A stretch of DNA of 64,000 nucleotides from an uncultured Lentisphaeria bacterium (GTDB lineage Bacteria > Fidelibacterota > UBA8477 > JABMPR01): NCBI GenBank assembly GCA_964454335.1, contig CAYVVT010000014.1:8858-72857 (forward strand). Reading direction: 5' to 3'. How positions within the stretch are numbered: the stretch's first letter is position 1; every line of letters begins with the position of its first letter. Below, in pieces: positions 930 through 26,471 of this stretch. The translations under genes were made by a program, and so were the position numbers. Below the pieces are notes generated by a model. It ran no database searches and was not told the DNA's origin. It saw only the letters and a program-made list of their open reading frames with translations.

Positions 930-982
930 ACAAGTTTTCCGCTTACCGGCTCTGACAGTGATCCCCTTTCTGATCCTGAAAG

Positions 983-3900
983 TTATTCAGACTGCAGCGG
1001 CGCAGTGATATCGCGTTTGAAGCTGGATCTCAAGGCCAGCGCTATCCAGAAGGAGCCGTTCACCAACATGACCCCTGCCAGGATCAGGACGAAGGTGAGG
1101 GCCTGCCCTGCATCCGCGTGAGTAAGCACCGGGAGGATCGAGATGATGGCGGCCAGCGAACCGATGAACAGCCCCGGTAGCAGGTTCAGCAACTGTTCGC
1201 TGTAGATGATCCACCCGACTCGTTTCCGGGTGTAACCGACGGCCTGGAGTAATGCCAGTTCCCAGCGGCTTTCCAGCAAGGTTCTCAGAACAACGGCACC
1301 CAGACCAAAGGTTCCGATGAGCAATCCAAGACTTCCCAGCATCAGGAATATGGAGAGATAGGTGTTCTGTACGGCGCCGAATACCACCAGCCGTTCTCCG
1401 GTGCCTCCGATGAGAGGTCCCAGATCATGCAGGGAGATCTCGAGCTGGCGTGTGACCGCTGCGGGATCCGGAGTGTCCGCTAGAAAGACGCTGTATCCGT
1501 TCCGCGATGGGAAGTAGCGCTCAAAATCACGCTCAGCGATGATCACATGTCCCTGGAAAACGGAATTTGCCAGTCCGCCCACCAGAACCATGGCCAGCCT
1601 GGCTCCTGCATCGTCCTCATAGAACAGGGTATCCCCCAGTCCCAGACCGAATCCCCACTGGATCACACTCATATCAGCTACGGCGGGAACAACACCATCT
1701 CCAAAATCCTGCTCCAGCACATCCCAACCGGAGGATCCAGGGAGATCCTCAAGCAGTCTGATAAAATTGAACCGGTCCTGAAGTAATGCCGGACTTACAC
1801 CCAGGATCTGGGGCTGCTGTACCATATTCAGGTTCAGACAACTGCCATCGTCTCCTGATCTCTTTCTGAATTTCACAATCTCTGGGTCCAGCGGCGAACT
1901 AGCGGAAGCGGATCCTTGTCCAGCACGCATGGTCTGATCATCGAGTACCGGCAGCGTCGTTTCAATGAAAAGGTCGAATCCACCCGTCCCGGATCGCCTG
2001 TCCTGACTGTCCCGGGTGGGATCCTGGTGGTTCAACCCCACGGAAACGACGATGAAGATCCCCAGAACCAGGAGACTGATGGTGGCCAGGTTCCGGCCGG
2101 ATCGTCTGCTCCAGTTCTGAAGAATGACAGATGATAGTCCGAAGCGGTCAACATTTGCCCTGTGCCTGATCTCATGCATGACAAATGTGCAGGCATACAG
2201 TCCCAGGAACAGCAACAGGATAGCAGCAGTGTAGAAAACGGCCAGACCTGCATGTCCATCTGCGTAGTGCTTCCACAGAAGGCTGAGGAGAGCAAGGGTG
2301 ACAAGGATGAGGACAGCAATGTGCTTCCCTCTGCGCCGGCCCCAGCCAGCAGGATCCCGGATACTGGCTGTCTCTGCCAGACTCAAATGCTGTCTGGACT
2401 GCCGGCGGATCACGATCCAGATGGTGACAAATGAGAGCAGAAATCCCGCAATCACGCCGATAGCGATGTTCGCTGCGTTGACCTGCAGGGTGAAATCTGA
2501 GAATCCCACCGCATCGCGCCAGAATGAACCCAGGCCATACAGGATGAAGCGGGAGTACTGGATGCCGATCACGGCTCCCAGCACGCCTCCCAGGAGAGAT
2601 AATGTGAGTCCCTCTGCCAGACGCAGGTTCCGGATCTGAGTGGGCAGAAAGCCCAGAGCCTGCAACTGTCCCGTTTCATCCCTGCGTTGATCAGTATTGA
2701 AGATAAACAGCAGGGTTGTGAGCAGGCCTGCTGCCACGATGATGAAGAAACTGAGCCCGATGAACAACTGGCCGAAATCGACGCTGGCCTCACTGGCTGA
2801 AACCGCGTTCTGCAGTACAGGTTCAAAAGTCAGCCCCCACGAGCCTTCTGTCAGAGCAGCATTGATCTCATCATGGAGCTGCGGCCAACGCGGCGCTGGA
2901 TCATTGAAGCGGATGGCAGTGAGTTCACCATACTTGTTGCTCCAGAGCTCCTGAGCGGTAGCCAGGGCGATGAATGCTTTGGGAGTCCCCCGGTATAGGT
3001 CCCAATAGGTCTCATCCTGATCCCGGATGGAAGCCAGATCGATGGGTATGCCGGGATGCCATTCCATACAGCTTTCAGCATCAGCCAGACCCGGAAAGGC
3101 AGGCATGAGGTGTGGATCAGCAGCAGCACCTGCAATTGGAACGATCTGTTTCAACAGAAAGGCGTGTTCACGCTGGACCAGTTCATTCCGAGCATCAAGC
3201 GCGTAATACGATAAGCGGACACTGTCCCCGGGAATGACCCGGAGCTCCTGCGCGGTCCAGTCGTTCAGAACGATCTCGTCACCTTCCAGGACAAGGGTGT
3301 CCAGCCTGGACATACCTGCAACGAATGAGTATGGGACTTTGAGGTCATGCCCGCTTATCTCATTGACAAAATAGCTCAAGACCTTTTCTGACACGCTGGA
3401 CACCTCGGACATAGCCCGTGAGATCCGGTGATTGAGAAAGATCTGGTCACTGATCAACTCAATACGCCCCAGTTCCGGGAGTTCTCTGAGTGAGAGGTTC
3501 AGATCTTCCGGTGCCAGGACCTCTTTCAGGCTTCTGTTCAATTGTTCGGTGGACAGCCCGTCCCGGGATTGACAGATGATCGTATTGATCCTGGCGGCAC
3601 TTCCAGTCTTTCCGGCCAGCAGCTCCCGGTCCATGAATATGTTGTTGGGTACAAACTGGTTCGATCGCAGGCTGAAGCGGCCCAGTTGATCATCCTCCAG
3701 TACCGCAGCCACCTCAACTGCCATCTGGATGGAACGGTTGGCCTTGCTTACCACCGGGGATTCCAGGGGCAGGATGGCGTTATTCTCAACACTGAGGATC
3801 AACTCATGGTCGATTTCAAGTTCAAGCAGATCAGCCACCCTGCGGCTTACAGCAATCCGATTACCGCTGATATCGGCAGGGAAACCAATTCCTGGGGCAA

Positions 3901-4252
3901 AGGAGTGAAAGTGCTCATCGATCCCCCAGACCTGGACCTGATTGAGCCGTTGCTGGGCGTGGGTCTGCAAGCTACCTGAAAGATGCAGCAGGCCTGAACT
4001 TGTAACAGAGCCGTTCCGGGCTACCAGGGTGGCCAGCTCAGAACGAAAGGTGCCATGATCCGATACAAGGGCATGGTGCGTTTTCCCAAGTCGTTTCATG
4101 GAAAGATTCAGAAGGCTGGTCCTCACGGAATCGCCTGCGATGAGGGCGCCTACCAATACCGCAGTGGCGATTACCGCACCGGTAATGACGCCCAGATTGG
4201 TCCGCCAGTAATGCCTGAGACTGCTGAGAAGGTATGGGAAGAAGCGTCCCAT
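983..4252 (-). CDS. ABC transporter permease, MacB/FtsX type with duplicated permease domain
   Basis: 1089-aa ORF. An N-terminal TM helix (LGVITGAVIATAVLVGALIAG) is followed by a large extracytoplasmic region. Two clusters of TM helices, one mid-protein and one C-terminal, match a duplicated FtsX architecture. The ORF starts 5 nt after the stop of a LolD/MacB-type ATPase gene. Confidence 0.8.
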   Translation of the reverse strand: MGRFFPYLLSSLRHYWRTNLGVITGAVIATAVLVGALIAGDSVRTSLLNLSMKRLGKTHHALVSDHGTFRSELATLVARNGSVTSSGLLHLSGSLQTHAQQRLNQVQVWGIDEHFHSFAPGIGFPADISGNRIAVSRRVADLLELEIDHELILSVENNAILPLESPVVSKANRSIQMAVEVAAVLEDDQLGRFSLRSNQFVPNNIFMDRELLAGKTGSAARINTIICQSRDGLSTEQLNRSLKEVLAPEDLNLSLRELPELGRIELISDQIFLNHRISRAMSEVSSVSEKVLSYFVNEISGHDLKVPYSFVAGMSRLDTLVLEGDEIVLNDWTAQELRVIPGDSVRLSYYALDARNELVQREHAFLLKQIVPIAGAAADPHLMPAFPGLADAESCMEWHPGIPIDLASIRDQDETYWDLYRGTPKAFIALATAQELWSNKYGELTAIRFNDPAPRWPQLHDEINAALTEGSWGLTFEPVLQNAVSASEASVDFGQLFIGLSFFIIVAAGLLTTLLFIFNTDQRRDETGQLQALGFLPTQIRNLRLAEGLTLSLLGGVLGAVIGIQYSRFILYGLGSFWRDAVGFSDFTLQVNAANIAIGVIAGFLLSFVTIWIVIRRQSRQHLSLAETASIRDPAGWGRRRGKHIAVLILVTLALLSLLWKHYADGHAGLAVFYTAAILLLFLGLYACTFVMHEIRHRANVDRFGLSSVILQNWSRRSGRNLATISLLVLGIFIVVSVGLNHQDPTRDSQDRRSGTGGFDLFIETTLPVLDDQTMRAGQGSASASSPLDPEIVKFRKRSGDDGSCLNLNMVQQPQILGVSPALLQDRFNFIRLLEDLPGSSGWDVLEQDFGDGVVPAVADMSVIQWGFGLGLGDTLFYEDDAGARLAMVLVGGLANSVFQGHVIIAERDFERYFPSRNGYSVFLADTPDPAAVTRQLEISLHDLGPLIGGTGERLVVFGAVQNTYLSIFLMLGSLGLLIGTFGLGAVVLRTLLESRWELALLQAVGYTRKRVGWIIYSEQLLNLLPGLFIGSLAAIISILPVLTHADAGQALTFVLILAGVMLVNGSFWIALALRSSFKRDITAPLQSE

Positions 4253-4257
4253 GAGGA

Positions 4258-4932
4258 TCAGATCCGATTCAGTCTTCCGTTTGTCAGGAGATGTTTGACC
4301 TTGATCTGTTCTGCCAGTTCTACTGAATGGGTAACCACGATCAAAGCCACGGCCTCCTCATGGTTCAGCTCCAGGAGTAAATCCATAAGGGCCCCTGCTG
4401 TTTTCTGATCAAGAGAGCCCGTGGGCTCATCCGCCAGCAGGAGTTTCGGAGTGTTGATCAGGGCCCTGACCACTGCAGCACGCTGACATTCGCCACCGGA
4501 CAACTGACCGGGACGATGATCCTTGCGCTGCAGAAGGTCAACACGGGTGAGCAGCTTGATGGCCCGTTCCCTCAATGCTGCGGCATGTTCCTTTTCATAA
4601 AATGCCAATGCAGGCATAAGGACGTTCTCCAGCAGGGTCAATTGGGGCAGCAGGAAATGCTGTTGAAAGACGAATCCGATCTCCTGGTTCCGGTAATAGG
4701 CCAGTTCCCGGGAGTTCAGATCATTGAGATCACGACCATTGAACAGGACCCTACCACTGTCCGCTTCCGTAAGGGCGCCCATAACATTCAGCAGGGTGCT
4801 CTTCCCGGAGCCTGAAGGTCCCATGATGGCGGCCACCTGGCCGTTATCTATCTCAAGATCCACTCCTTCAAGCACAGGTACCGGGACCTGTGTCGCATAT
4901 GTCTTACTGACATTCTCAAGTTGTAATAGCAT
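4258..4932 (-). CDS. ABC transporter ATP-binding protein (LolD/MacB-like)
   Basis: Walker A GPSGSGKSTLLN, ABC signature LSGGECQRAAVVRAL, Walker B LLLADEPTGSLD and H-loop VTHS are all present. Confidence 0.95.
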   Translation of the reverse strand: MLLQLENVSKTYATQVPVPVLEGVDLEIDNGQVAAIMGPSGSGKSTLLNVMGALTEADSGRVLFNGRDLNDLNSRELAYYRNQEIGFVFQQHFLLPQLTLLENVLMPALAFYEKEHAAALRERAIKLLTRVDLLQRKDHRPGQLSGGECQRAAVVRALINTPKLLLADEPTGSLDQKTAGALMDLLLELNHEEAVALIVVTHSVELAEQIKVKHLLTNGRLNRI

Positions 4933-6208
4933 CTTCGAACACCTTCAGGATACGATTGGCCATGCCTGTGCTGTTGAAATATGAAAATACCTTCTGTTGA
5001 CCCTGCTTGCCAAGCCTGTCGAGCTGGGCTGTGTCACTGAGCAGACCGGCCAGTGATTCTGCAAGCTGCTCGGGTGTGTTCGGCTCAAAACACAATCCCC
5101 CGCCGGTGAGCTCCACCACCTCAGGGAAGGCGCCGATCTTTGGCTGTACGATGGGAACGCCGTGGGCCAATGCTTCAAGGAGAAAGATACCAAAGGCTTC
5201 ATGCTTCTGCATGGGAACGCTGAGGACCGTGATGGACCTGAGGAATTCGATCCGGTTCTCGGCGTCAAAATCCTCCAGGAAATCCACCTGCCCTGCCAAT
5301 CCGCTTTTCTCCAGTTTGCGCTCGAGAGCCTGCATGAAACCCCTGTCATCACTGGTGACACCACCGATGGCCTTCAATCTGAGCTCACTGAATCGCGGAT
5401 CCTTGCGCAGAATAATGAATGCGTCAACCAGGGTACCCAGACCCAGGGACTCAGTCATTCTCGACAGATATCCAATGACCGGCGTGGCCGGCTTCGCTTC
5501 GTCTGCTTCAAATCCATCCAGGTCAATACCCAGGTGTACCGTGGAGAGTTTCTCTGGCGGGATGTGCATCAGCTTCTGGATCTTCCGATTGTAGTAATCA
5601 CTCACGGGGACGAAAGTGTCTACATAATCGGCATTCACCTCCATGATCTGCCAGATCTTCTCCAGAGCTCCCGGCTCCATGTCCTCCAGCCAGATGTCCT
5701 CATCCTCCAGAGCGCACACCACGGGCAGATCTAATTCCGTTTTCAGACTTTTGGCCAACCCCAGCAGCAGGGCATTGGCCAGGTAGATGACATCCGGTCT
5801 GATCTCATCCCGGATCCAATCCACCAGATGTCTGATCTCATGGGCTTGGTGCCCCTCTTCACCCCGGAGCATGGACAGTGTCATCTCCTCCAGGCCGGCA
5901 GCACGCGTGGAATCGGCCTTGTGGGCGGCAAACTTCAACAAAGGACGTGAATTTACCATACGGTTGATCCAGGTCGGGAGATAGGCGAAGGGTGGGAACT
6001 TCTCGATGAGATAGGTACTGATGGCCCCAAAGAACAGGGGGCTATGGCTGCCTACCTCACCCTCCGCAAATGACAGAGGCAGATAGAGCGGGATCATGGT
6101 TACCTCGTGCCCCAGTTGACGCAGTGCCCTTACAAGGCTGCCGTCGCGAACACAGTTCACGCAGTAGAAACTGCCGCCGGTGCCGGGTATGATCTGCGCG
6201 ATCTTCAT
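4916..6208 (-). CDS. Glycosyltransferase, GT4/GT-B fold
   Basis: 430 aa. The C-terminal half has the GT4-type E-x7-E region (EAFGIFLLEALAHGVPIVQPKIGAFPEVV). The N-terminal half resembles a glycosyltransferase 4-like domain. It overlaps the downstream ABC ATPase gene by 17 nt. Confidence 0.8.
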   Translation of the reverse strand: MKIAQIIPGTGGSFYCVNCVRDGSLVRALRQLGHEVTMIPLYLPLSFAEGEVGSHSPLFFGAISTYLIEKFPPFAYLPTWINRMVNSRPLLKFAAHKADSTRAAGLEEMTLSMLRGEEGHQAHEIRHLVDWIRDEIRPDVIYLANALLLGLAKSLKTELDLPVVCALEDEDIWLEDMEPGALEKIWQIMEVNADYVDTFVPVSDYYNRKIQKLMHIPPEKLSTVHLGIDLDGFEADEAKPATPVIGYLSRMTESLGLGTLVDAFIILRKDPRFSELRLKAIGGVTSDDRGFMQALERKLEKSGLAGQVDFLEDFDAENRIEFLRSITVLSVPMQKHEAFGIFLLEALAHGVPIVQPKIGAFPEVVELTGGGLCFEPNTPEQLAESLAGLLSDTAQLDRLGKQGQQKVFSYFNSTGMANRILKVFEDAITT

Positions 6209-6251
6209 CGCAGGGTCTCCGTACGGGATGAACCAACCTGCATATGAATCC

Positions 6252-7433
6252 CTAACCGTCAGCCCTGAAACAGTAGAGGATCCCAGCCTGGGAACCGATG
6301 AGGATCTTATCCGTCAACACCGCCGGTGATGAGCTCAGGGGGCTGCCGCAGTCATAGGACCAGAGCGGTTCTCCGGTGGCCGTATCCAGAATATACAGCG
6401 AGCCATCCATGGAGGCGATGAGCACCCGTCCGCCACTGACAACGGGTGAACTATCAAGGGGTCCCTGGCTCAGGAAGCGCCATACCAGGCGGCCTGTATT
6501 CTTGTTCAGGCAGTACAGGTGCCAATCCCGGGAACCGATGAAAAGTTTGGATGGGCCCATTGCTGGTGAGGAAACGATTGGAGCGGCATTTTCCTCGTAC
6601 TTGAAGTCCCACTTTACTTCCCCAGAGTTACTGTCGATGCAGTACACCTGGCCATCGTAATTCCCTACATAGATGCGATCATCCTCCAGCGCCGGTGAGC
6701 CGGCAATGTAGATCTCGAGATTGCAACTGCTGATCATATCGCTGCGGGTACCGGAGATGGTGTGCACGATGGCGTCACAGCCACCGAAGACGATCCTTTC
6801 ACCCGAAACCGCAGGTGTACCGTTGATATAATGGGTGGTCTCATAGCTCCACTGCTCTGCTCCATCAGCGCTGCTCAGGCAGTACAGTTTGTTGTCATAG
6901 CTGCCGAAGACGATCCTGGACCCGAGTGTTGACAGCAGATTGGCGGAACCAACGATCTTCCCCTCGGTGGCAAACTGCCATTTCAACTCGCCGGTCCCGG
7001 CGTCGATGGCGTACATGATCCCTTCCAGGGAGCCGATGAAAATCCGATCATCCTGGATCAGGGGTGATGCTTCGAAAGGATACTCGCTCTCAAAGATCCA
7101 GATGGATCCGCCGGTCTCGAGATCGAGGGCATGTAGTCGGCCATCGGTGACGGCCATAAACACTTTTCCTTCACTTACCACCGGAGAGGATCTGATATCT
7201 TCCTGGGCATTGAAGGTCCAGGCCAGAGAATAGCTTTCGGCCAGGGGATGTGCTGACCTACCGGTCAGCTGGGGATCACCACGATGGATTGGCCAGTCAC
7301 GCTTACCTTGCCCCATGGTGGCCGTTGCGGTCAACACCAGGCTGACTACAAATAAAACGACGCTGTTGACAGACCTCTTGTTCAACGGTTCAACCTTCAT
7401 CTTCGGTAGCGGTGTTCTTAAGGAACTCTTCAA
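6252..7433 (-). CDS. PQQ-like/BamB-like beta-propeller repeat protein, N-terminal signal/anchor
   Basis: Blade motifs repeat throughout: GRLHALDLETGGSIWIF, GIMYAIDAGTGELKWQF, NKLYCLSSADGAEQWSY, GQVYCIDSNSGEVKWDF, WHLYCLNKNTGRLVWRF, GSLYILDTATGEPLWSY. There is an N-terminal hydrophobic segment VVLFVVSLVLTATA. The start is uncertain (7433 or ATG 7400), and either overlaps the upstream gene. Confidence 0.8.
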   Translation of the reverse strand: MKSSLRTPLPKMKVEPLNKRSVNSVVLFVVSLVLTATATMGQGKRDWPIHRGDPQLTGRSAHPLAESYSLAWTFNAQEDIRSSPVVSEGKVFMAVTDGRLHALDLETGGSIWIFESEYPFEASPLIQDDRIFIGSLEGIMYAIDAGTGELKWQFATEGKIVGSANLLSTLGSRIVFGSYDNKLYCLSSADGAEQWSYETTHYINGTPAVSGERIVFGGCDAIVHTISGTRSDMISSCNLEIYIAGSPALEDDRIYVGNYDGQVYCIDSNSGEVKWDFKYEENAAPIVSSPAMGPSKLFIGSRDWHLYCLNKNTGRLVWRFLSQGPLDSSPVVSGGRVLIASMDGSLYILDTATGEPLWSYDCGSPLSSSPAVLTDKILIGSQAGILYCFRADG

Positions 7434-11363: not shown

Positions 11364-11364
11364 A

Positions 11365-13080
11365 TCAGGATCCCGGCCGGGCAATGCAGTAAAGGTGCGT
11401 TTCCCCGCGTATATAGATGCGACCGGGCATGAATGCCGGTGTGCAGGAGGAGGCTTCCCCCAGCTCACAGACGTTTACCCGTTCATAGCTGTCGGCCAAT
11501 CGGAAGATCTGCATCTGACCCTTGAGGTCCATGAGATAGACATTTTCATCGACGATGATGGGCGACGAATAGAAGCCGCTGCCCAGATATTTATCCCAGA
11601 GGATCTCACCGGTGGCGGTATTCAGCATGGAAACGAGACCACCGCTAGTGGCCATGACCAGGTACTCGCCCCGGGCGACTGGACTGGAAGTATTCGGCAG
11701 GTTATCCTCCATCTGCCAGCGGATCTCCACAGCCGGTTCACTTCCAGGTGCGTGTATCTCAACCGCGCTGGCTTTGGCATATTCATTGGCTGTGAAAAGC
11801 GTGCCCTGGCTGTAGGCGGGTGACGGTCCCACCTCGCCTGAAAGGCATTCGACACGCCAGTGGTAATCACCACTTACCGGGTCATAGGAGCTCAAGCTCT
11901 TACTGTCAGTCAGGATCAACTCCGTACGCTCCCCGGTATCCACGATGATGGGAGAGGCCCAGGAGATGGTCCAGCGTTCGGCTTCCCACACTATGGCGCC
12001 CGTGGCGATACTCACCGCGATAAGCCGGGGTTCGTTGAAACTGTCATACTGCACCAGGCAGAGCCCCTCGTGCACGAGGAGAGAGGAGGAGTGGGCATAA
12101 TGATTGTCCAGCAGGCCGAGGTTCCGGCCCCAGGCGCGATCGCCTTCCATGGTATAGCATACCAGGTCGCCGGTGGCAAAGATGGCCAGCACACGTTTCC
12201 CATCAGTGGCCATGGTGGGCGCTGCGAAGCCGGTTCCGGGATCCACATAGTCGAAATCGAATTCACTGTCAGGGGGCAGCATGTTGGGAACGGTCTGTTG
12301 CCAGAGCAGCTCGCCGTTATCCGCTTTGTAGCAGAAGACCTCTCGAATATTGGCGTCACCACCGGTGATGAAGATGCGGTCGCTGATCACGATTGGAGAG
12401 CTGAAGCCTTCCCGGGGGACCACTGTCTTCCAGAGGATGTTCCGGCCGCTGGCCCCATCCCAGTCGGTGGGTACGTCGGTATGCACGGCATGGCCGATAC
12501 CTCCCGGACCACGAAATGAGGGCCACTGCTGGGACAGATCAACAGCTTCGTCCAGGGTGGCCAGGGATCCTTCTTCCAGATCAGCAGGGATCTGGCTGGT
12601 AGTGAGCAGTGAGATCACCAGGGCAGTCAGGAAGAAAACGCTGCCAGTGGCCAGGATCACATTCTGAACACCCCGGGAAAAGGTCAGGAAGTCCGGTGCG
12701 ATGCGGTAGGCCGTGGGATCGGGCAGCCGTCGTTTCACGGAATTGGTGATCTTCAGGGAAATGGCGAACAGTCCCAGACTGATGAGTATCAGGATGCCGC
12801 CGATACGGACCTGCCAGAGACTGTTGAAATAAGCTTTGCGGGCCATGAGATGCAGTGTGCGCACCTCCTGTCGCAGCAGATCGTCCCGGGGCTGTTCACG
12901 GAGTTCGGTATTCAACTGCGTCAGCGCCGTGGAATTCAGTGGATCTACCTTCAGACGCTGGAAATAATTGGCCAGCACCAGGGTGGAAACGACAACGGCG
13001 ACCAGCAGGGCGATGAGGATGAGTCCGCGGGTCAGCGCAAAAAGGATCTTGAGATCGTCTGTGTTATCCAATTGATTCAT
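11365..13080 (-). CDS. Membrane-anchored PQQ-like/BamB-like beta-propeller protein
   Basis: The start is taken as ATG 13080 (MNQLDNTDD...), which overlaps the upstream gene by 17 nt. There are three N-terminal TM segments. These are followed by WPSFRGPGG and propeller blades (REVFCYKADNGELLWQQ, PRLIAVSIATGAIVWEA, KSLSSYDPVSGDYHWRV, GGLVSMLNTATGEILWDK). Confidence 0.8.
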   Translation of the reverse strand: MNQLDNTDDLKILFALTRGLILIALLVAVVVSTLVLANYFQRLKVDPLNSTALTQLNTELREQPRDDLLRQEVRTLHLMARKAYFNSLWQVRIGGILILISLGLFAISLKITNSVKRRLPDPTAYRIAPDFLTFSRGVQNVILATGSVFFLTALVISLLTTSQIPADLEEGSLATLDEAVDLSQQWPSFRGPGGIGHAVHTDVPTDWDGASGRNILWKTVVPREGFSSPIVISDRIFITGGDANIREVFCYKADNGELLWQQTVPNMLPPDSEFDFDYVDPGTGFAAPTMATDGKRVLAIFATGDLVCYTMEGDRAWGRNLGLLDNHYAHSSSLLVHEGLCLVQYDSFNEPRLIAVSIATGAIVWEAERWTISWASPIIVDTGERTELILTDSKSLSSYDPVSGDYHWRVECLSGEVGPSPAYSQGTLFTANEYAKASAVEIHAPGSEPAVEIRWQMEDNLPNTSSPVARGEYLVMATSGGLVSMLNTATGEILWDKYLGSGFYSSPIIVDENVYLMDLKGQMQIFRLADSYERVNVCELGEASSCTPAFMPGRIYIRGETHLYCIARPGS

Positions 13081-14377
13081 ACAGATCCTTCTGGCGATCC
13101 AGCACCTTCTGGCGCTCATGTTCATCTGGACAGTAGGGGAAACAGCGTCCACAGCTGAAACAGTCCATACGATTGCTCTCGTAATCCACCTGGGTGCGTT
13201 TGAAAAAGGTTCCCATGGCCTTGGAGCCAATGACCAGGCCGATGAAGATCCCCAGGAGGATGCTGCCCAGCTTGAAATTATCCCGGACTGCGTGTGACTC
13301 CTCCAGCAACTCACTAACAAGTTTTCCGGATTCGTGAAAGATGCGGCTGGCCAGCGTGGTGCCCTCCACTAGCCCGTTCTTCTCCTGCATGACCCGTTCA
13401 GCCAGTTGGATGGTGGGATGCAGTTTCGAAAGGGTGACACTCAGCAGGGATCCGACACCGGCACCGATGAGCACCAGTACAACTGTGACAACGATGAGTT
13501 GACCCAGACGCCTGCCGGCTTTGGTCTGATCCGAACTCGACAGATCCGGTTCAGGTTTGTCGATGGCGTCAAAGGGGCAAGATTCCTCACAGAGCCGGCA
13601 CTGGGTGCAACGGTCAGGAGTTATGCGGTGATGCCATCTGGAAAACTTGGACGCCCAGCCCAGAAGCACACCATAGGGACAGAGAAAACGGCAGTAGGGA
13701 CGACCGTAGAAAAGACCCACGGCCAGGAAGGCCGCCCCGAAGAGGACCATGTTGAATTCTCCGCCGATACGGAAGAAGGCTACGAATGGATCCAGACGAC
13801 AGATGATGAATCCCGCCCCGGTGGCCACATAGAGAACGGCAGCACCGAGAAAGACATAGGGCAACAGTCCCAGGATGGCGGCCAGTCTGGGATTGACCTT
13901 CGTGGGTCGGACCAGCACCAGTTCCTGAGCTGCCCCCAGGGGACAGACGGCTGCACAGAAGGTACGGCCAAAGAACAGGGCAAAGACCAAGGGCAGGATG
14001 AAGAAGATCAGCACGCTCACCGGGATGAAGTAGCCGGGATCGAAGATGGCCAGTGAGACATTCTGGATGGATCCGATGGGACAGATACAGCCTTCCCGCC
14101 AGAATCCGAAATATCCGAGCGAGAACAATGAGAGCAGAAAGATCAGGTTCCGGGAGCGTCTGCGGAGGACCAGGTAGGTTGCCAGGCTGAGGGTCACAAG
14201 GAGAACGGCGACATCCAGGTATTCATACAGCGCATTCTGCGGCATGGGTGTGGTCATGAGTGGTTTCTGGTAATCGGATTCAAACTCCGGTCGTGGGAAA
14301 CGATCCTGGGCCGTGGCCCTGGCCACCAGCAGCGGAATGCCGTAAAGCAGTTGACGGATATTGGGAAGTCTCGACAT
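13064..14377 (-). CDS. NapH/MauN/NosH-like integral-membrane polyferredoxin
   Basis: Membrane-embedded CX3CP motifs are present (FCAAVCPLG, YCRFLCPYG, plus CICPIGS). Two 4Fe-4S motifs are CTQCRLCEESCP and CFSCGRCFPYCP. The ATG at 14377 overlaps the upstream stop (TGATG). The longer ORF to 14470 is rejected as an upstream extension. Confidence 0.8.
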   Translation of the reverse strand: MSRLPNIRQLLYGIPLLVARATAQDRFPRPEFESDYQKPLMTTPMPQNALYEYLDVAVLLVTLSLATYLVLRRRSRNLIFLLSLFSLGYFGFWREGCICPIGSIQNVSLAIFDPGYFIPVSVLIFFILPLVFALFFGRTFCAAVCPLGAAQELVLVRPTKVNPRLAAILGLLPYVFLGAAVLYVATGAGFIICRLDPFVAFFRIGGEFNMVLFGAAFLAVGLFYGRPYCRFLCPYGVLLGWASKFSRWHHRITPDRCTQCRLCEESCPFDAIDKPEPDLSSSDQTKAGRRLGQLIVVTVVLVLIGAGVGSLLSVTLSKLHPTIQLAERVMQEKNGLVEGTTLASRIFHESGKLVSELLEESHAVRDNFKLGSILLGIFIGLVIGSKAMGTFFKRTQVDYESNRMDCFSCGRCFPYCPDEHERQKVLDRQKDLYESIG

Positions 14378-14958
14378 CAGCTGCCCTGGCGCTCTCCCTT
14401 GAACAGATAGGGTTCCTCCGCCGGCCGGCGGGCGATGGCATCGGAGGGGCAGGAGCGTGAGATCGCGCATTCATTGCAGTTCACGCAGACGTCATGGCGG
14501 ACCTGCAGGAACAGGGAACCGTTGCCGAAGGCGCCACAGCCCTTCACGCATTTACCGCAGCCGATACAGAGAGATTCGTCGATGCTGTACTGGAAATAGG
14601 GGTCCTCGACGAAGGTGCGCTGGAGGGCGCCGGTGGGACAGAGCTGGTTCTCCGCACCGGTATCCAGTTTGGTGGCGTCCGGAGGGAAGTAGCCGCCACA
14701 GAGTTTGCAATAGCCGCACATCTCGTAGGCATGGACGCACTTCACCGCAGACTGGCTCAGAACGCATTCCGTAGCGCAGTTGCCGCATTGGACACAGATA
14801 TGCGGATCGATCTGCCAGATCATCTCCCGCTTATCACCCTTGAGAATGGCCATGCTGCCTACGCCGGCCAGGCAGACCCCGCCAACGATACGCATGCCAT
14901 CGTTCAGGAAGCGGCGGCGGCTGACGTTTTCAGGTCTATTCTCAGACATGCCGGGCAC
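14377..14958 (-). CDS. Tat-exported NapG/MauM/NosG-like 4x[4Fe-4S] ferredoxin
   Basis: A twin-arginine signal SRRRFLNDGMRIVGGVCLAGVG is present. Cys clusters are CVQCGNCATEC, CGYCKLC, CIGCGKCVKGC and CVNCNECAISRSCP. Confidence 0.85.
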   Translation of the reverse strand: MPGMSENRPENVSRRRFLNDGMRIVGGVCLAGVGSMAILKGDKREMIWQIDPHICVQCGNCATECVLSQSAVKCVHAYEMCGYCKLCGGYFPPDATKLDTGAENQLCPTGALQRTFVEDPYFQYSIDESLCIGCGKCVKGCGAFGNGSLFLQVRHDVCVNCNECAISRSCPSDAIARRPAEEPYLFKGERQGS

Positions 14959-14961
14959 CTC

Positions 14962-15219
14962 TCATTCGGAAAACTTTGTTGCGTTACGGTAGTTGACAGC
15001 GTCACTGCGCTCGCAGGCTGATAGCTGTCGGCAGGCTGCACAGGCATGCCGCCTCTGGTCCGGTTCCAACTCTGCCGCCTGGCAGGTATTGCGGCGGTAC
15101 AGGAATCCACCCAGGCCTCCCAGGACCAGGAGCATGGCCAGGCGTCCCGCATTTTGGAGAAAGGTCTTGCGATCCATATGCTCTTGAACACCGGTTTTGT
15201 CCTCTGCCGTGTACTGCAT
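14962..15219 (-). CDS. Small Cys-rich single-pass membrane protein (function unknown)
   Basis: 85 aa from ATG 15219. It has one TM helix (LAMLLVLGGLGGFLY) followed by four Cys (C-x12-C-x2-C-x5-C: TCQ...HACAACRQLSAC). It sits 3 nt upstream of the NapG-like gene and directly after the NHL gene. Coding status rests on position and frame only. Confidence 0.5.
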   Translation of the reverse strand: MQYTAEDKTGVQEHMDRKTFLQNAGRLAMLLVLGGLGGFLYRRNTCQAAELEPDQRRHACAACRQLSACERSDAVNYRNATKFSE

Positions 15220-15221
15220 GA

Positions 15222-16214
15222 TCAACTCCCGGTTTTGCGTTCGAATATCCTGATCATCTTCGAGGATGGATCAGCGACGATGATGCGCTGCTGCGAATCA
15301 ACCGCCAGGTCCAGACCTGTGGCCTGTTTCTTGAAATTGTCGGGACCGGAGACCACCGTTTCCAGTTGTCCTTCCTGATCATAGATCTTGATCCGCACCA
15401 GTCCCTTTTCGCTGGTGACAAATCCCGAACCTGGGATGAGGGCAAAATGGGATGGATTGCAGCAGCCGCAGAAGCCTTCGATCTCGGAGGAGGCTCTCCC
15501 CCATTCTGCAAGCAGGGCTCCGGCAAAATTGTAATTCTCAAAAGTGTGCAGCCCGGGATTCACCACCCACAGTCGATCATCCCCCGCCACTGCCAGATCA
15601 AAATAGGCGCTGGGTAAAACGAAGCCGGGACGACCTGGTTTCACGTCCCGACCGCCAATCTCATTGAGGAGCTCTCCGGCGAGATCATATCGAAGCACGA
15701 TATGCGCCCCGGCATCGGCAATGAACAGATCGTCCCCTGCCACAGCGATGGAGGTGATGATGGAACTGTCGCTCTGCGTAAACAGTTCCTGCTTCAATGC
15801 GCCATCGGCCCCATAGACCAGGACCTGCTCCCTGGTGGCAGCATAGATGTCCCCATTCTCAACGATATCCATGCTCCGTACGGGTAGAAGGGTTTCAAAG
15901 CTCAGCATCTCACTGCCGAAGGGATTGAACTTGACGATGCAGGAATCTGTCGAGGCATAGATAAAATCATGATCATCCACGGCGACACCGAAAAGTTTGC
16001 GACAGTCCACAGGTATCTGCTGGGTGATCGCATAGGTGATGAGGTCCGCATCGATCCTGTTGTAGGCTTCGAGATCCAGATCGAAGGGATTGTCGGCACT
16101 CCGCCTGTTCTCTGACATCACCACTACAATTACAATAACGATGACGACCAGGCCGGCGATGCCGAAGATAGTCGTGAGCCGGGATGGGCCGGAGCTTCCT
16201 GGTGTTGATGTCAT
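15222..16214 (-). CDS. Membrane-anchored NHL-repeat (6-bladed beta-propeller) protein
   Basis: An N-terminal TM is present (IFGIAGLVVIVIVIVVV). NHL-like blades repeat (DIYAATREQVLVYGADG, DLFIADAGAHIVLRYDLAG, RLWVVNPGLHTFENYNFAG, RIIVADPSSKMIRIFE). There is an unusual GFCGCCNPSHF motif. The ATGA start/stop overlaps the upstream gene. Confidence 0.7.
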   Translation of the reverse strand: MTSTPGSSGPSRLTTIFGIAGLVVIVIVIVVVMSENRRSADNPFDLDLEAYNRIDADLITYAITQQIPVDCRKLFGVAVDDHDFIYASTDSCIVKFNPFGSEMLSFETLLPVRSMDIVENGDIYAATREQVLVYGADGALKQELFTQSDSSIITSIAVAGDDLFIADAGAHIVLRYDLAGELLNEIGGRDVKPGRPGFVLPSAYFDLAVAGDDRLWVVNPGLHTFENYNFAGALLAEWGRASSEIEGFCGCCNPSHFALIPGSGFVTSEKGLVRIKIYDQEGQLETVVSGPDNFKKQATGLDLAVDSQQRIIVADPSSKMIRIFERKTGS

Positions 16215-17662
16215 ATGGTCTCCTCACTCCCCCTGATCTCCACACAAACGATGCGGCGCGCATCCCTGGCGATGAGTTTTCCATCCACGATGGCCAGTGG
16301 TCCCCAGGCATCCGGTCCTTCCAGGATCTTCACCCGAACCAGTGGAGAGAACTCCTTGGCCGATGCGTCGATGACGGTGAGTTCACCTTCATCATCCAGG
16401 ATGAAGAACTTGTTATCCGCCAGGATGTAGGGTCCCAGCCCGAAGCGATTGGTCTTGCCGCTGGACCAGATCAGCTCGGAGATGTCGTCCGCGGAGAAAC
16501 AGGCAAATTGCCCGTTCAGCGAGCCGCCATCCTTGGGCAGGATACCATAGATTTGTCCATTATGGTAGATGGCTGTCTGCTGCTCGCTGGCCATGCCGGT
16601 GTGCGGCAGGACCGACTGCAGGGAATCCACTGAAAAGCTATCCGAACCTTGACTGACCTGCAGCAGCATGCCACCGGCGCTGTAGCCTGCGCTGACGAAT
16701 ATCCGTCCCGATCCCAGATCAAGAGGTGCCGGTGCCACCACCTGGTGGGACCAGAGATCCGTTTTCCACAGCGTAGTGCCCTGGTCCTCCAGTTCTGCCG
16801 AGACGCCCACGACGCCGCCATTGGCGCAGTACACGTATTGACGTTTACCTTCGATCTCCATGAGCATGATGGAGGAATGCGACATCTTCCATTCATCCGG
16901 ATTGGGTGTCTCCCAGAGGATCTCACCGCTGGCGCAGTCCACACCTATCATCAGGCTGGTCCCACCGGTAGCGATCACAGCCGTGGATCCATCGATGAGA
17001 GGACATTGACCTGTGTACCACAGGGGTACCTCCACAGCATGATCACGTTCCAGGTCCAGACCCCACAGGAATTCGCCGGTCTCCCTTTCCACGCACATGA
17101 CATGACAACGTGGACCGATGGTCACGACGAAATCCTGGCTTACGGCAGGTACCGTGCGGGACATGCCGTGGTTGCGTTTGACTTTGACCGTATAGGATCG
17201 CCGCCAGAGTTCACGACCGTCAGCCAGGGCGAAGCAGCGCAGGGCGTCAGTCCTTCTATCCTCATCATAATCCAGGAGATATACTCGTCCATCGTAGACA
17301 GCCGGTCCGGCATGACCTTCCCCCAATTCATGAGACCAGAGGATGTTTGGTGCTGATCCAAGCTTGTCTGACATGCTGAGGGGCTGTTTGCTGATATTGC
17401 TGAAGTCGACTCCTCTGAAGCGGGGCCAGTTACCGGACGGCTCGACGGTACTGCTGTCAAAATACTCGAAGTGCTCCCCGATGACCACCCGCTCTTCCCG
17501 GGCAACTGCCCCACCCTGGGGCTCGTTGTCTGAGCCGGGCACCAGGATCTGGAAGTCGGCGCTGGGGTCAAATCCCATGTACCAGCCCAGTACCACGGTA
17601 GACACCAGCGCCAGGGTGCCGGCGCTGATGATGCTGAGATGGTTGTTGGTCACTGAGGCCAT
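16211..17662 (-). CDS. Membrane-anchored PQQ-like/BamB-like beta-propeller protein
   Basis: An N-terminal TM is present (LSIISAGTLALVSTVVLGWYM), then NWPRFRGVD and blades (DALRCFALADGRELWRR, CHVMCVERETGEFLWGL, SLMIGVDCASGEILWET). Confidence 0.8.
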   Translation of the reverse strand: MASVTNNHLSIISAGTLALVSTVVLGWYMGFDPSADFQILVPGSDNEPQGGAVAREERVVIGEHFEYFDSSTVEPSGNWPRFRGVDFSNISKQPLSMSDKLGSAPNILWSHELGEGHAGPAVYDGRVYLLDYDEDRRTDALRCFALADGRELWRRSYTVKVKRNHGMSRTVPAVSQDFVVTIGPRCHVMCVERETGEFLWGLDLERDHAVEVPLWYTGQCPLIDGSTAVIATGGTSLMIGVDCASGEILWETPNPDEWKMSHSSIMLMEIEGKRQYVYCANGGVVGVSAELEDQGTTLWKTDLWSHQVVAPAPLDLGSGRIFVSAGYSAGGMLLQVSQGSDSFSVDSLQSVLPHTGMASEQQTAIYHNGQIYGILPKDGGSLNGQFACFSADDISELIWSSGKTNRFGLGPYILADNKFFILDDEGELTVIDASAKEFSPLVRVKILEGPDAWGPLAIVDGKLIARDARRIVCVEIRGSEETI

Positions 17663-17706
17663 CGTATGTCGATTCTGCCGGATCGTGATTTACCCGGCAT
17701 GGTTGA

Positions 17707-18939
17707 TCAACTCCTGATATCGTAGGCCATCAACGTATCGCCATGGCGTACATAGAGGATACCATCCGAGATCACCAGATGGGCCCAGTGCTCGTTGGTG
17801 CCTCGATTGATCTTGAATGAGCTGATGAGTTCAAATCTGCGTGGATCGGGCTGGATGAGACCTACTTTGCCGTTCTGGCCATAGAAATAGATCAGACCAT
17901 CGGCAGTGATGACATTCCCTTTACCCAGGCCTGGATCTACGTACATCTCTTCACCGGTTCGCCATTCGATGCAGTGCCAGGCAGGTCTCTCATGGCTGGT
18001 ACCGTAGATGTAGCCATCAATGACAACGAAGCCGTCCATCTGAACATCCAGTGTTTCGTTGCGCCAGACCTCGCTGATGGATCTACCATCATCGGAAAGC
18101 GTCAATTGGACACCACCTGTACCGTAGCCGCTGACACAATAGATCTTCCCGTCCAGGTAGTAGGGTGTGTTGGGATTGATATCATACTCGGTCTCATGGG
18201 TGTGTGACCAGAATAATTCGCCATTTTCTGCGTTTACGCCGATGATGGATTCACCGGTCATGGTGACAATGATGCGGCTGCCGCCGTGTTCCACCACGAT
18301 CGGCGAACAATAAGCAGCACGATCACCAACACCTTTGCCAGACCAAACCAGTTCTCCGGTATGACGGTTCAGCGCGATGATGTTCGTTTTGGTCCCACCC
18401 GGTGTGCAAATGAGATTATCGCCATCGATAAGCAGGGATTCTGTCAAACCCCACTTGATCTCACGGGCTCCGTATTTCTTTTTAAGGTTGACGCGCCAGA
18501 CGATATCGCCGTTCTCAACGTTCATGCACACCACATCACCGCCGGTGCCTTCCACGTAGAGCAGACCGTCTAGAACGGTAGGTGTGGTACGGGTGCCCTC
18601 ATAGCTTTTCGTCCATTCAGAACCGTATTCGGTCTTCCATTTCAATTGACCCTGCTTGTCGATCCCAAAGACATAGCCTTTTTCATCGATCATCCCGGTA
18701 GTAAATACGCCCTCTGAAGTGACCGCCGCCGAGGCGTAGCCCATGCCGAGAACTGTTGTTGACCAGAGAAGATCCGGACCGCCCCGGGGCCACTTCTGCA
18801 GCAGGTCCTGTTCGTGATAAACACCATCCCGGTTCAGCCCCCGCCACTGTGAGAAGGATCCATTTCCAGTCTGAGCGATCAGTCCAAAAGACAAAACGGT
18901 CACCTGGAGTATGCTCAATGCAACTCTGAAGTTCGTCAT
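17707..18939 (-). CDS. Secreted PQQ-like/BamB-like beta-propeller protein
   Basis: The start is taken as ATG 18939, which gives a signal peptide MTNFRVALSILQVTVLSFGLIAQ. The motif FSQWRG is followed by blades (GYVFGIDKQGQLKWKT, GDVVCMNVENGDIVWRV, TNIIALNRHTGELVWSG, ESIIGVNAENGELFWSH). The 108-codon upstream extension of the ORF to 19263 has no protein-like features. Confidence 0.8.
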   Translation of the reverse strand: MTNFRVALSILQVTVLSFGLIAQTGNGSFSQWRGLNRDGVYHEQDLLQKWPRGGPDLLWSTTVLGMGYASAAVTSEGVFTTGMIDEKGYVFGIDKQGQLKWKTEYGSEWTKSYEGTRTTPTVLDGLLYVEGTGGDVVCMNVENGDIVWRVNLKKKYGAREIKWGLTESLLIDGDNLICTPGGTKTNIIALNRHTGELVWSGKGVGDRAAYCSPIVVEHGGSRIIVTMTGESIIGVNAENGELFWSHTHETEYDINPNTPYYLDGKIYCVSGYGTGGVQLTLSDDGRSISEVWRNETLDVQMDGFVVIDGYIYGTSHERPAWHCIEWRTGEEMYVDPGLGKGNVITADGLIYFYGQNGKVGLIQPDPRRFELISSFKINRGTNEHWAHLVISDGILYVRHGDTLMAYDIRS

Positions 18940-19081
18940 TCTGTGTTCCCCATGTTCTTTAAGTGTTGTTCTGCGTTTAATAAAATAGTCAACTTTCTGG
19001 AAATTACCTGATATGGAATTTGCACGGCTGACATATGCTCTCAGGAACCGATTACATGTAACATAGTTAATAATTGTGAAT

Positions 19082-19097
19082 AGCACAAATAGTGCCA
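19082..19097 (-). promoter_or_regulatory. Candidate sigma-54 (-24/-12) promoter for the propeller/NapGH-like operon
   Basis: The minus strand reads TGGCAC-tattt-GTGCT, with correct GG-N10-GC spacing against the consensus TGGCAC-N5-TTGCW. It lies 143-158 nt upstream of ATG 18939. A sigma-54-dependent activator is encoded in the window. Confidence 0.5.
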
Positions 19098-19347
19098 GCA
19101 GAGTTCGCTGATCCTTCTCTGACACTGGTCTGACCATCTCCAGGAATGTATGATCGTGACGATGGGGATCAGGACACCTGGTAGCAGATGGTGATATCAA
19201 TTGAGGTGTCTGATGCAGATAGTTATGGCGCTGAGTGTTGTGATAAACGGATATCAGGATCATGGGATTAACGTTGATCCAAACATTTCTGCCCGGTGAA
19301 CTGATGCGGTAGAGTATTCGCTTATTACTTCCGATTGGCCTGGCTTT

Positions 19348-22867: not shown

Positions 22868-22904
22868 ATTAAGGAACATTGAATTGAAACCAAAGGAGGT
22901 TCTC

Positions 22905-23591: not shown

Positions 23592-23639
23592 ACAGTTCAG
23601 TCTGAAAATCATTGCTAAACCTGAATAGGAGACCAATCC

Positions 23640-25734: not shown

Positions 25735-25743
25735 GAGTCTATA

Positions 25744-26418: not shown

Positions 26419-26471
26419 GACAGAATGGATCTGACAGTGAGCTTCCCGTGTTCCAGTTTTAAGGAGTTATA

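Follow-up and report, generated by a model that had tools for sequence, protein, structure and literature searches.

The window analyzed here is a stretch of 64,000 nucleotides (nt) on contig CAYVVT010000014.1 (GenBank assembly GCA_964454335.1), from an uncultured bacterium named as Lentisphaeria in GenBank and placed in Fidelibacterota by GTDB. Its minus strand carries 13 consecutive open reading frames (ORFs), here called G1 to G13, which run from 18939 to 983 and encode a candidate redox system composed of a cytoplasmic flavoprotein, membrane and periplasmic iron-sulfur (Fe-S) proteins, five beta-propeller proteins and an accessory block. An earlier note, made from the letters of the DNA alone, had described the run as an operon with gaps of 44 nt or less. 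The ORF list bears this out: the coordinates are as the note gave them, and every start/stop overlap that it listed is present.

The genes are translationally coupled. G2 and G3 share an ATGA (16211-16214), G5 and G6 a TGATG (14375-14379), and G8 and G9 a GTGA (8994-8997); G6 overlaps G7 by 17 nt (13064-13080) and G11 overlaps G12 by 17 nt; the stop of G7 at 11365 adjoins a TTG at 11363; and 5 nt separate G12 from G13. The widest intergenic gaps are those of G1/G2 (44 nt) and G10/G11 (43 nt). Some starts have alternatives: an in-frame TTG at 15225 precedes the ATG from which the G4 mini-gene is counted, the start of G8 is uncertain (TTG 11363 or GTG 11468), and G10 may begin at ATG 7400 instead of TTG 7433. 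The terminator-like hairpin between the upstream membrane-protein gene and G1 (Table 1) fits an independent transcription unit. A scan upstream of G1 detected no sigma-70 consensus promoter, FCB-group promoter types lying outside its coverage. G+C content is 54.5-57.5% at 1-19000 and 45-50% at 32000-64000, with a dip to 44.7% at 20-22 kb; the contrast may stem from horizontal transfer of the cluster or from a different gene content.

Pfam agrees with the domain set that the earlier note had read from the translations; the NHL match of G3 is weak and is backed by an AlphaFold2 (AF2) model. None of the 13 proteins reaches an NCBIfam equivalog cut-off. The note had also remarked on what the run lacks, and this was borne out: Pfam found no molybdopterin or cupredoxin domain among the 13 proteins, a CXXCH motif occurs in none of them, and G4 is no candidate for the small subunit that carries tryptophan tryptophylquinone (TTQ) or cysteine tryptophylquinone (CTQ), as discussed below.

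Table 1. Features of the G1-G13 cluster in the window (TM, transmembrane; PQQ, pyrroloquinoline quinone; Tat, twin-arginine translocation; GT4, glycosyltransferase family 4; ABC, ATP-binding cassette; aa, amino acids).
Feature	Coordinates	Strand	Basis or remark
Upstream non-coding region, presumed promoter	18940..19111	-	bounded by terminator-like hairpin 19111-19095 (minus strand)
G1, secreted PQQ_2-type beta-propeller, 410 aa, cleavable signal, no lipobox	17707..18939	-	Pfam PQQ_2, 3e-26
G2, N-terminally TM-anchored 8-bladed propeller, candidate catalytic subunit	16211..17662	-	Pfam PQQ_2, AF2 model
G3, TM-anchored 6-bladed NHL propeller	15222..16214	-	weak Pfam NHL match, AF2 model
G4, 85-aa Tat-type 4-Cys mini-protein	14962..15219	-	read from the sequence
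G5, Tat-exported NapG-like ferredoxin, four [4Fe-4S] motifs	14377..14958	-	Pfam Fer4 families, RRRFL
G6, NapH-like membrane polyferredoxin	13064..14377	-	Pfam Fer4_5, 6e-17
G7, three N-terminal TM segments and PQQ_2 propeller, 571 aa	11365..13080	-	Pfam PQQ_2, 2.6e-21; hydropathy scan
G8, fused BfuC (NuoE-like) and BfuB (NuoF-like) flavoprotein	8994..11363	-	Pfam 2Fe-2S_thioredx, Complex1_51K, NADH_4Fe-4S, Fer4
G9, BfuA/NfnA-like Fe-S and FAD subunit	7390..8997	-	Pfam Fer2_4, Fer4_20, Pyr_redox_2
G10, exported PQQ_2/ACSF4-type propeller, first of accessory block	6252..7433	-	Beta-prop_ACSF4, 3e-64; PQQ_2, 8e-45
G11, cytoplasmic GT4 glycosyltransferase	4916..6208	-	Pfam Glycos_transf_1, Glyco_transf_4
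G12, LolD-like ABC ATPase	4258..4932	-	Pfam ABC_tran, TIGR02211
G13, 1089-aa duplicated FtsX-type (type VII ABC) permease	983..4252	-	Pfam FtsX, two stretches

Gene order and carriers of the cluster

At least 1402 relatives of G3 were found, nearly all unnamed or labeled 'hypothetical'; among representatives at 50% identity, 1384 match with E<=1e-30. When one genome per species was scanned with G3, at least 582 genomes carried a relative, the best match being in a metagenome-assembled genome (MAG) of Candidatus Neomarinimicrobiota (57% identity), which makes Marinimicrobia the probable source of the window. Named carriers are Marinifilum fragile, M. flexuosum, M. caeruleilacunae, Labilibaculum sp. 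and Ancylomarina sp. MAG carriers come from Prolixibacteraceae, Lentimicrobiaceae, Aminicenantes, Latescibacterota, KSB1, Calditrichota and Chlorobiota, and further from Kiritimatiellae, Victivallales, Verrucomicrobiota, Pirellulales and Spirochaetota. About ten phyla are represented in all, Bacteroidota, Marinimicrobia, Planctomycetota and Nitrospirota among them. Thousands of related proteins are present in metagenomes from anoxic sediments, digesters and water columns.

The 13 window proteins were compared by tblastn with 83 G3-anchored genome loci, and presence was counted only over loci long enough to test. The gene order G1(x1-6)-G2-G3-[G4]-G5-G6-G7-G8-G9-G10-G11 is near-invariant. G5 was present in 74/76 testable loci, G6 in 70/72, G7 in 64/67, G8 in 55/58, G9 in 47/53 and G2 in 70/75, and G1 lay upstream of G2 in 57/67; linkage of G11 was seen in 22 genome loci. 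Several seeming gene absences proved to be clusters stretched by IS200-like, PDDEXK or KilA-N insertions, with the order intact. In KSB1 and Saprospiraceae loci, for example, genes for an IS200-like Y1 transposase, PDDEXK_3 and KilA-N are inserted (L001, 14918-15352; L003, 8452-8865 and 11506-12345). All of the best 120 G6 homologues are orthologues inside the same cluster.

The genome-locus flanks of 10 kb cut off downstream genes, and hence a second scan of metagenome contigs was anchored on G13. Redox genes lie beside G13 in 40 of the 55 testable metagenome loci, and G11 is linked in most of the G13-centered loci. Two arrangements occur: that of the window, [G1-G9][G10-G13], and a permuted one, [G10-G11-G12-G13][G2-G3-G5-G6-G7-G8-G9], seen in metagenome, Phycisphaerae and Nitrospiraceae loci, with complete sets in one Nitrospiraceae MAG and one Phycisphaerae contig. 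G10 travels with G11-G13 in both permutations, and the four genes shift as a unit relative to G2-G9 yet remain adjacent to them. When all other ORFs of 163 loci were clustered, no further gene family recurred in the flanks except G4 variants and mobile-element genes, and no known terminal reductase was among the recurring families. The 13 families are thus inherited together as one closed module, of which G1-G9 and G10-G13 are the sub-blocks, and their synteny in more than 100 independent loci excludes chance adjacency. The earlier note had the gene membership of the operon right and overlooked that the GT4, ABC and FtsX genes belong to the module proper and are inherited with the rest of it; the linkage on which it had staked its proposal, that of NapGH-like, NuoEF-like and propeller genes, persists across about ten phyla.

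Two of the propeller genes vary in copy number. G1 occurs in one to six tandem copies per locus (six in L043 and L072), and one to three extra G7-like TM-propeller genes follow the FtsX gene in many metagenome loci (L089, L092, L098, L101 and others). This looks like diversification of substrate-facing modules. Two hits of the G3 search were set aside. One, an orphan NHL gene of G3 type (L077, 9974-10912), is located in a MAG of Candidatus Brocadiia amid genes for a secretin, PilM, a RimK-like protein and FtsW, with no other cluster member, and such pilus and cell-wall surroundings make it uninformative as a functional clue. The 4276-aa protein P0378 consists of about ten NHL propeller units alternating with immunoglobulin-like domains; its high G3-profile score comes from summed repeats only, and it is a generic multi-NHL surface protein lacking the GCCNP motif.

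The cultured named carriers belong to fermentative genera, as documented for Labilibaculum, strains of which, while fermenting glucose, reduce Fe(III) and Mn(IV) by means of genes that are unknown (PMC5760507). The genus Labilibaculum is represented among the cluster loci by L013 and L014. Members of the remaining carrier phyla are mostly anaerobes. Full-text searches aimed at the gene and domain combination found no published description of the cluster, and the physiology papers on Labilibaculum and Marinifilum do not mention it.

Flavoprotein, Fe-S relay, propellers and accessory block

G8 resembles solved B subunits of the Bfu family, with 714 bits to NfnB (9bov_B), 707 to Stn (8oh5_B) and 697 to NfnB (9n5u_B), and matches HydB chains also. 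Across 61 sequences, it keeps the FMN glycine-rich motif and the Cys residues of a NuoE-type [2Fe-2S] cluster, an N-terminal [2Fe-2S], an N3-type [4Fe-4S] and a C-terminal 2x[4Fe-4S] set. The BfuBC core is the defining feature of the Bfu family (PMC9304861), and G8 is, by its sequence, a full BfuBC core in one fused polypeptide.

G9 combines the Pfam domains Fer2_4 and Fer4_20, an FAD Rossmann fold and the NuoG-like ferredoxin domain Fer4_Nqo3. Its N-terminus aligns with those of NfnA, StnA and HydA, as expected of a BfuA-type Fe-S domain. Residues 2-286 align with NfnA 4-289 and residues 287-516 with NfnA about 424-674. The NADPH Rossmann subdomain of NfnA (290-437, about 150 residues) has no counterpart in G9, where GxGxxG occurs just once and bears the GG signature typical of an FAD fold. 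G9 also ends at the equivalent of NfnA residue 674 of 1178, so that the C-terminal molybdopterin-like domain of about 500 aa is missing. This short form is shared by all 52 aligned sequences (the window protein and 51 orthologues; median about 522 aa). Lacking the NADP(H)-binding subdomain, G8-G9 is not an ordinary Nfn/Stn transhydrogenase, and its Bfu-type core makes NADH and ferredoxin the likely inputs. The earlier note had proposed a flavoprotein driven by NAD(P)H or ferredoxin; of these donors only NADPH becomes unlikely. We infer that the 'third-substrate' port of G9, devoid of a nucleotide site, faces the membrane partner G6. Schut et al. noted BfuB sequences of the Nfn type in Bacteroidetes and described no membrane or periplasmic link (PMC9304861).

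Conservation of G6 across 74 sequences extends to each of its 16 motif Cys (those of CxC, of two CX3CP and two CxxCxxCxxxCP motifs, and C193), the CX3CP motifs lying at C141/C145 and C229/C233 and the [4Fe-4S] motifs at C257-C267 and C406-C416. A crude hydropathy scan delimited six TM-like segments, and a seventh (residues 79-95) was recognized by eye; two TM segments sit between the two ferredoxin motifs. To judge from the distribution of charges, the ferredoxin and CX3CP motifs probably all lie on the cytoplasmic side, as they do in NapH, and the CxC pair and the conserved RFPxPEF N-terminus would then face the periplasm. No solved structure in the PDB is related to G6 by sequence. In G5, RRRFL is accompanied by 17 Cys that are conserved across 79 sequences and arranged in four motifs of CxxCxxCxxxC type; the protein is only weakly similar to 9mqx_E, a polyferredoxin of the WOR-Bfu complex.

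The small protein G4, which matches neither a Pfam nor an NCBIfam family, combines R(R/K)xFL and a hydrophobic helix with the pattern C-x5-14-C-x2-C-x5-6-C. In most loci, the interval between G3 and G5 holds an equivalent ORF, again with RRxFL and four Cys. The twin-arginine is RK in the Marinimicrobia-type window and in L004 (DRKTFL, NRKAFL), and RR in most of the loci from other phyla that are shown. The earlier note had called G4 a Cys-rich mini-protein; Cys-rich it is, and the note missed its conserved Tat-type, four-Cys nature, and on this basis G4 may be, alongside G5, another small cofactor carrier that depends on Tat. As a TTQ/CTQ small subunit or a precursor of a ribosomally synthesized and post-translationally modified peptide, G4 was rejected on account of the absence of a conserved Trp, the absence of a radical-SAM or MauG gene, and its Tat-type motif.

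G2 is the best-conserved component of the cluster, with 55-68% identity between Marinimicrobia, Aminicenantes, Latescibacterota and KSB1. Its relatives, at least 6226, are labeled only 'PQQ-binding-like' or 'BamB'. Invariant residues include H165, H187, H262, C143, C186, C220, C388 and C473, and H117 is present in 97% of sequences. The AF2 model is an 8-bladed propeller with a predicted local distance difference test (pLDDT) score of 86, in each blade of which the top conserved motif directly precedes the innermost strand A: GEGHA (114-118, strand A from 121), KRNHGMSRT (162-170, from 178), WYTGQCP (215-221, from 222), MSHSS (260-264, from 266), VxAP (308-311, from 314), ASEQQT (358-363, from 365), RFGLGP (406-411, from 412) and DAWGP (451-455, from 457). 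With this placement, the motifs would converge on one His/Cys/Met-rich central pocket at the propeller axis, which is the position of the cofactor or metal site in PQQ dehydrogenases, NosZ and carotenoid oxygenases. The model is poorest (pLDDT about 60) in the two loops with the strongest conservation, which could result from ligand-dependent folding. G2 has no sequence-level relative in the PDB; Foldseek matches are BamB (TMq 0.55, TMt 0.70-0.75), tetrathionate hydrolase (TMq 0.58, 14% identity) and PQQ dehydrogenases.

The AF2 model of G3 is a 6-bladed NHL propeller (pLDDT 86), whose best PDB matches are the NHL domains of TRIM2 and Brat; PAL ranks 32. The invariant motifs are TS..ADA, PSxYFD, WVxNxGxHxxE, GF(C/S)GCCNPS and VTSEKGxxRxK, and by the strand and loop positions of the model they fall within the A-B and C-D loops of blades 3-5 and hence on one face. 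Vicinal Cys-Cys motifs occur also in methanol dehydrogenase, MerA, MerT and ArsD; as a lead, this analogy suggests thiol/disulfide or soft-metal chemistry for G3.

G1, G7 and G10 are less conserved (38-42% mean identity). The BamB identity that the earlier note had raised as an objection to its own proposal was rejected for the propellers: bits to TIGR03300 are 54 for G1, 38 for G2, 44 for G7 and 149 for G10 against a cut-off of 285 (423 for NF008351), the N-termini are devoid of a lipobox, G2 and G7 are TM-anchored in the inner membrane, and motif conservation is enzyme-like. Membership in the PQQ dehydrogenases was likewise rejected, the scores to TIGR03075/TIGR03074 being 29-98 bits against a cut-off of 480.

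In the accessory block, G11 has a conserved N-terminal FYCxNCxRD motif (C16 and C19). G12 scores 247 bits to the LolD model TIGR02211, under the equivalog cut-off of 308. G13 contains two large periplasmic domains with the invariant Cys motifs DAENCxDW and SCLNLN. Its PDB profile matches, YtrF, LolC, LolF and MacB, cover the TM parts only, and no relatives of the periplasmic domains are known. G10-G13 probably serves assembly or the handling of cofactor or substrate at the periplasmic face, for which NosDFY of the nos clusters and the mechanotransmission of type VII ABC systems offer analogies.

A putative electron outlet and its alternatives

Based on the gene content, cofactor motifs, export signals, conservation and linkage described above, we propose that the 13 genes encode a self-contained, membrane-spanning electron outlet, independent of quinones and cytochromes, that leads from the cytoplasm to periplasmic propeller reductases, and we give this reading a probability of about one half. 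What we infer is how the subunits make contact, that electrons flow outward, that G2 and G3 are catalytic, and what the substrate may be. G8-G9 would take electrons from NADH at FMN, and probably also from reduced ferredoxin at the C-terminal clusters, and pass them to the cytoplasmic [4Fe-4S] clusters of G6. From there they would cross the membrane to the Tat-exported four-cluster G5 and the small G4, and be delivered to membrane-anchored periplasmic propellers that reduce a periplasmic acceptor. The likeliest catalytic acceptors would be G2, with its His/Cys/Met-rich pocket, and G3, with its vicinal Cys-Cys; the other three propellers (G7, G1 and G10) would act as additional subunits or in handling the substrate. 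Such a system could serve as an outlet for fermentative reducing equivalents, with sulfur or other chalcogen species, or metal or metalloid species, as a guess at the acceptor. The arrangement would be in keeping with the modular reuse of NapH-like proteins with different periplasmic oxidoreductases (PMC8238504). Metal reduction by fermenting Labilibaculum strains (PMC5760507) lends it circumstantial backing.

Several points weigh against this reading. No catalytic cofactor site was recognizable in any of the propellers, which could be scaffolds rather than enzymes, and the central pocket of G2 is deduced from secondary-structure positions and not from model coordinates. Bfu reversibility leaves either direction of flow. 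Export of electrons from NADH to the periplasm would dissipate membrane potential instead of conserving energy. For the GT4/ABC/FtsX block, no redox role suggests itself, and its presence may be a sign of envelope biogenesis. The guess at a substrate derives only from the weak fold match to tetrathionate hydrolase (14% identity), from vicinal-Cys chemistry and from the lifestyle of the carriers.

The role of the accessory block leads to an account that we consider unlikely, in which the cluster builds or repairs the envelope: the propellers would be BamB-like scaffolds, the FtsX/LolD-like pair would perform mechanical work, and the Fe-S wire would supply reducing power for maturation or repair (of disulfides or oxidized residues, or in loading of cofactors or GT4 glycoconjugates). 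BamB is indeed among the best fold matches of G2, G12 and the TM parts of G13 resemble components of LolD, LolC, LolF and MacB type, a GT4 gene belongs to the conserved set, and the vicinal Cys-Cys of G3 and the conserved periplasmic Cys of G13 suit thiol chemistry. However, the propellers fall far under the BamB cut-offs, lack a lipobox and are anchored in the inner membrane, and the conservation of polar, His and Cys residues at the axis of G2 is enzyme-like. A Bfu core and a four-cluster ferredoxin would also be a large outlay for housekeeping repair, and many relatives of the carriers do without the cluster, so the function is not an essential one of the envelope.

The reverse direction of flow strikes us as slightly less likely still. 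Here a periplasmic propeller would oxidize a low-potential donor, and G5 and G6 would feed a Bfu core that bifurcates to NAD+ and ferredoxin in an energy-conserving loop. HydABC, Nfn-Bfu and Fdh-Bfu are reversible, and many of these enzymes reduce NAD+ and ferredoxin from a mid-potential third substrate (PMC9304861); flavinylated NapH-like systems, too, have been proposed to serve periplasmic oxidases such as ExaA besides reductases (PMC8238504). Against the membrane potential and bifurcation together, however, the donor would have to lie near or below -400 mV, and no known low-potential oxidase domain, be it of a hydrogenase, formate dehydrogenase, CO dehydrogenase or another enzyme, occurs in the 13 proteins or recurs in 160 loci. 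The carriers, moreover, are chiefly organoheterotrophic fermenters.

Two further accounts fare worse. The mau clusters join a propeller subunit, a small Tat-exported Cys-rich subunit and the NapGH-like pair MauM/MauN, and by this model the cluster would encode a dehydrogenase of quinoprotein type, whose propellers use PQQ or a protein-derived quinone (as in ExaA, methylamine dehydrogenase [MADH] and quinohemoprotein amine dehydrogenase), with G4 as the small Cys-rich cofactor subunit and G5/G6 as MauM/MauN. ExaA is linked to NapH-like genes in 172 genomes (PMC8238504), and G1, G7 and G10 have weak PQQ-family matches. We regard this account as improbable given the TIGR03075 scores and the lack of a conserved Trp in G4 described above. 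MauG, radical-SAM QhpD, amicyanin and cytochromes are absent from the 13 proteins and from the recurring locus families, no pqq genes lie within the 64-kb window, and the carriers are mostly anaerobes. That a soluble Nfn/Stn transhydrogenase, a NapGH-like pair and BamB-like genes merely lie side by side is effectively refuted. The strong likeness of G8 and G9 to the structurally characterized NfnABC and Stn subunits might have favored it, and the earlier note had itself allowed that the flavoprotein genes could belong to a separate known complex. However, start/stop overlaps flank G8-G9 on both sides, the linkage is kept across phyla through permutation and insertion of mobile elements, and G9 lacks the very subdomain that defines Nfn function.

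Returning to the electron outlet, if it exists, electrons would leave the cytoplasm in a new way, fed in by a Bfu flavoprotein and carried by Fe-S proteins throughout; the usual routes from cytoplasm to periplasm are quinones, cytochromes, DsbD-type thiol relays and flavinylated proteins. It would also add to the Bfu family a membrane-coupled member whose A subunit is stripped of its nucleotide site, and would make the G2 and G3 families, now tagged 'BamB', 'PQQ-binding-like' or 'hypothetical', candidate new redox enzymes. The reach of such a system would be wide: besides the species-level genomes with a G3 relative, the cluster itself is confirmed in more than 100 loci, and many carrier phyla have few or no cultures. 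A bolder version, which we offer tentatively and hold to be doubtful as a whole, is that NADH and ferredoxin jointly send electrons of about -400 mV outward to drive new cofactor-bearing 8-bladed and NHL propeller reductases, and that these could be the missing genetic basis on which Fe(III), Mn(IV), sulfur or similar acceptors undergo 'fermentative-type' reduction in Bacteroidota, Marinimicrobia, Aminicenantes, Planctomycetota and other sediment phyla. The presence of the cluster in cultured Marinifilum, Labilibaculum and Ancylomarina strains would make electron dumping by fermenters on external acceptors directly testable.

Elsewhere in the window, a second membrane redox module lies on the plus strand at 22884-27218 and encodes two TM-anchored GcvH-like proteins, a Tat (RRDFL) NrfC-like 4Fe-4S protein, an NrfD-like protein and a Cys-rich protein of 248 aa; the pairing of GcvH-like proteins with NrfCD is unusual. 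It is followed, up to 30249, by a HAMP histidine kinase and a sigma-54 activator. At 9-929 (plus strand) is a PD40 beta-propeller protein with a C-terminal sorting domain (Por_Secre_tail) of the type IX secretion system, an FCB-group marker. The region 32314-62391 is devoted to carbohydrate utilization (SusC-like TonB receptor, GH32, galactokinase-like kinase, SSF symporter) and includes, oddly for such a setting, three paralogous ADP-ribosylglycohydrolase-family proteins of 539-674 aa.

Relation to known systems

The closest parallel to G5-G6 is found in the NapGH, NosGH and MauMN pairs, with which it shares a Tat-exported ferredoxin with four [4Fe-4S] motifs and a polyferredoxin with two CX3CP and two cytoplasmic [4Fe-4S] motifs. 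The client enzymes of NosGH and MauMN are beta-propellers, as are the proposed periplasmic partners here. By the NCBIfam models for NapG and NapH (NF007012, NF007013 and TIGR02163), however, G5 scores 23.2 bits against a cut-off of 269 and G6 39.9 against 234 and 41.8 against 213 (TIGR02163), and G6 differs from NapH by its extra RFPxPEF N-terminus, its CxC motif and two more TM helices between the ferredoxin motifs. There is no linkage to napA or napB, in line with the lack of molybdopterin domains and CXXCH motifs, and NapAB, NosZ or MADH as a client was found neither in the window cluster nor among the families that recur in 160 loci. Whereas the donor of NapGH is quinol, the apparent donor here is a cytoplasmic Bfu flavoprotein.

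That flavoprotein shares with NfnABC and Stn (9bov, 8oh5, 9n5u) the full BfuBC core in G8 and, in G9, the Fe-S domains and FAD Rossmann fold of NfnA. It departs from them in the fusion of BfuC to BfuB and in the two domains that G9 lacks; moreover, NfnABC/Stn is a soluble three-gene unit, whereas the G8-G9 genes are embedded among genes for membrane and periplasmic proteins. The flavinylated NapH-like systems (NosR, PceC, NapH-ExaA) likewise rely on a modular NapH-like Fe-S transmembrane wire, sometimes with a PQQ-type propeller enzyme, and Meheust et al. (2021) described NapH-like proteins as modular transmembrane wires in clusters defined by FMN-binding domains and ApbE (PMC8238504). By contrast, FMN_bind and ApbE domains occur in none of the 13 proteins, and neither family is recurrent in the loci; here a poly-[4Fe-4S] ferredoxin would act as the relay in the periplasm, with a NuoEF/Bfu flavoprotein as the partner in the cytoplasm.

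Like the nos cluster, the present one unites a periplasmic propeller enzyme (here a candidate), a NapH-type donor and an ABC accessory system in a single operon, but it has no NosZ, cupredoxin, NosD or NosL, and its ABC unit is of the LolD/FtsX type (type VII) and not NosFY. With type VII ABC systems (LolCDE, MacB, FtsEX, YtrF) it shares the LolD-like G12 and, in G13, two FtsX TM modules with large periplasmic domains; unlike those systems, G13 is a fused double permease whose periplasmic domains bear conserved Cys motifs, and it is tied to GT4, propeller and redox genes. G2 shares the 8-bladed PQQ_2-clan fold with BamB and tetrathionate hydrolase, the latter a cofactor-less PQQ_2 propeller that acts as an extracytoplasmic enzyme on sulfur compounds. 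Identity to these proteins is 14-19%, however, and G2 has an inner-membrane anchor, no lipobox and unique His/Cys/Met motifs, and is not associated with Bam genes. By sequence comparison, the cluster falls outside each specific family considered, namely NapGH, Nfn/Stn, BamB, PQQ dehydrogenases, flavinylated NapH-like systems and nos. Its parts are of known kinds (a Bfu core, a NapGH-like pair and a type VII ABC system); what is new is the donor module and the client proteins.

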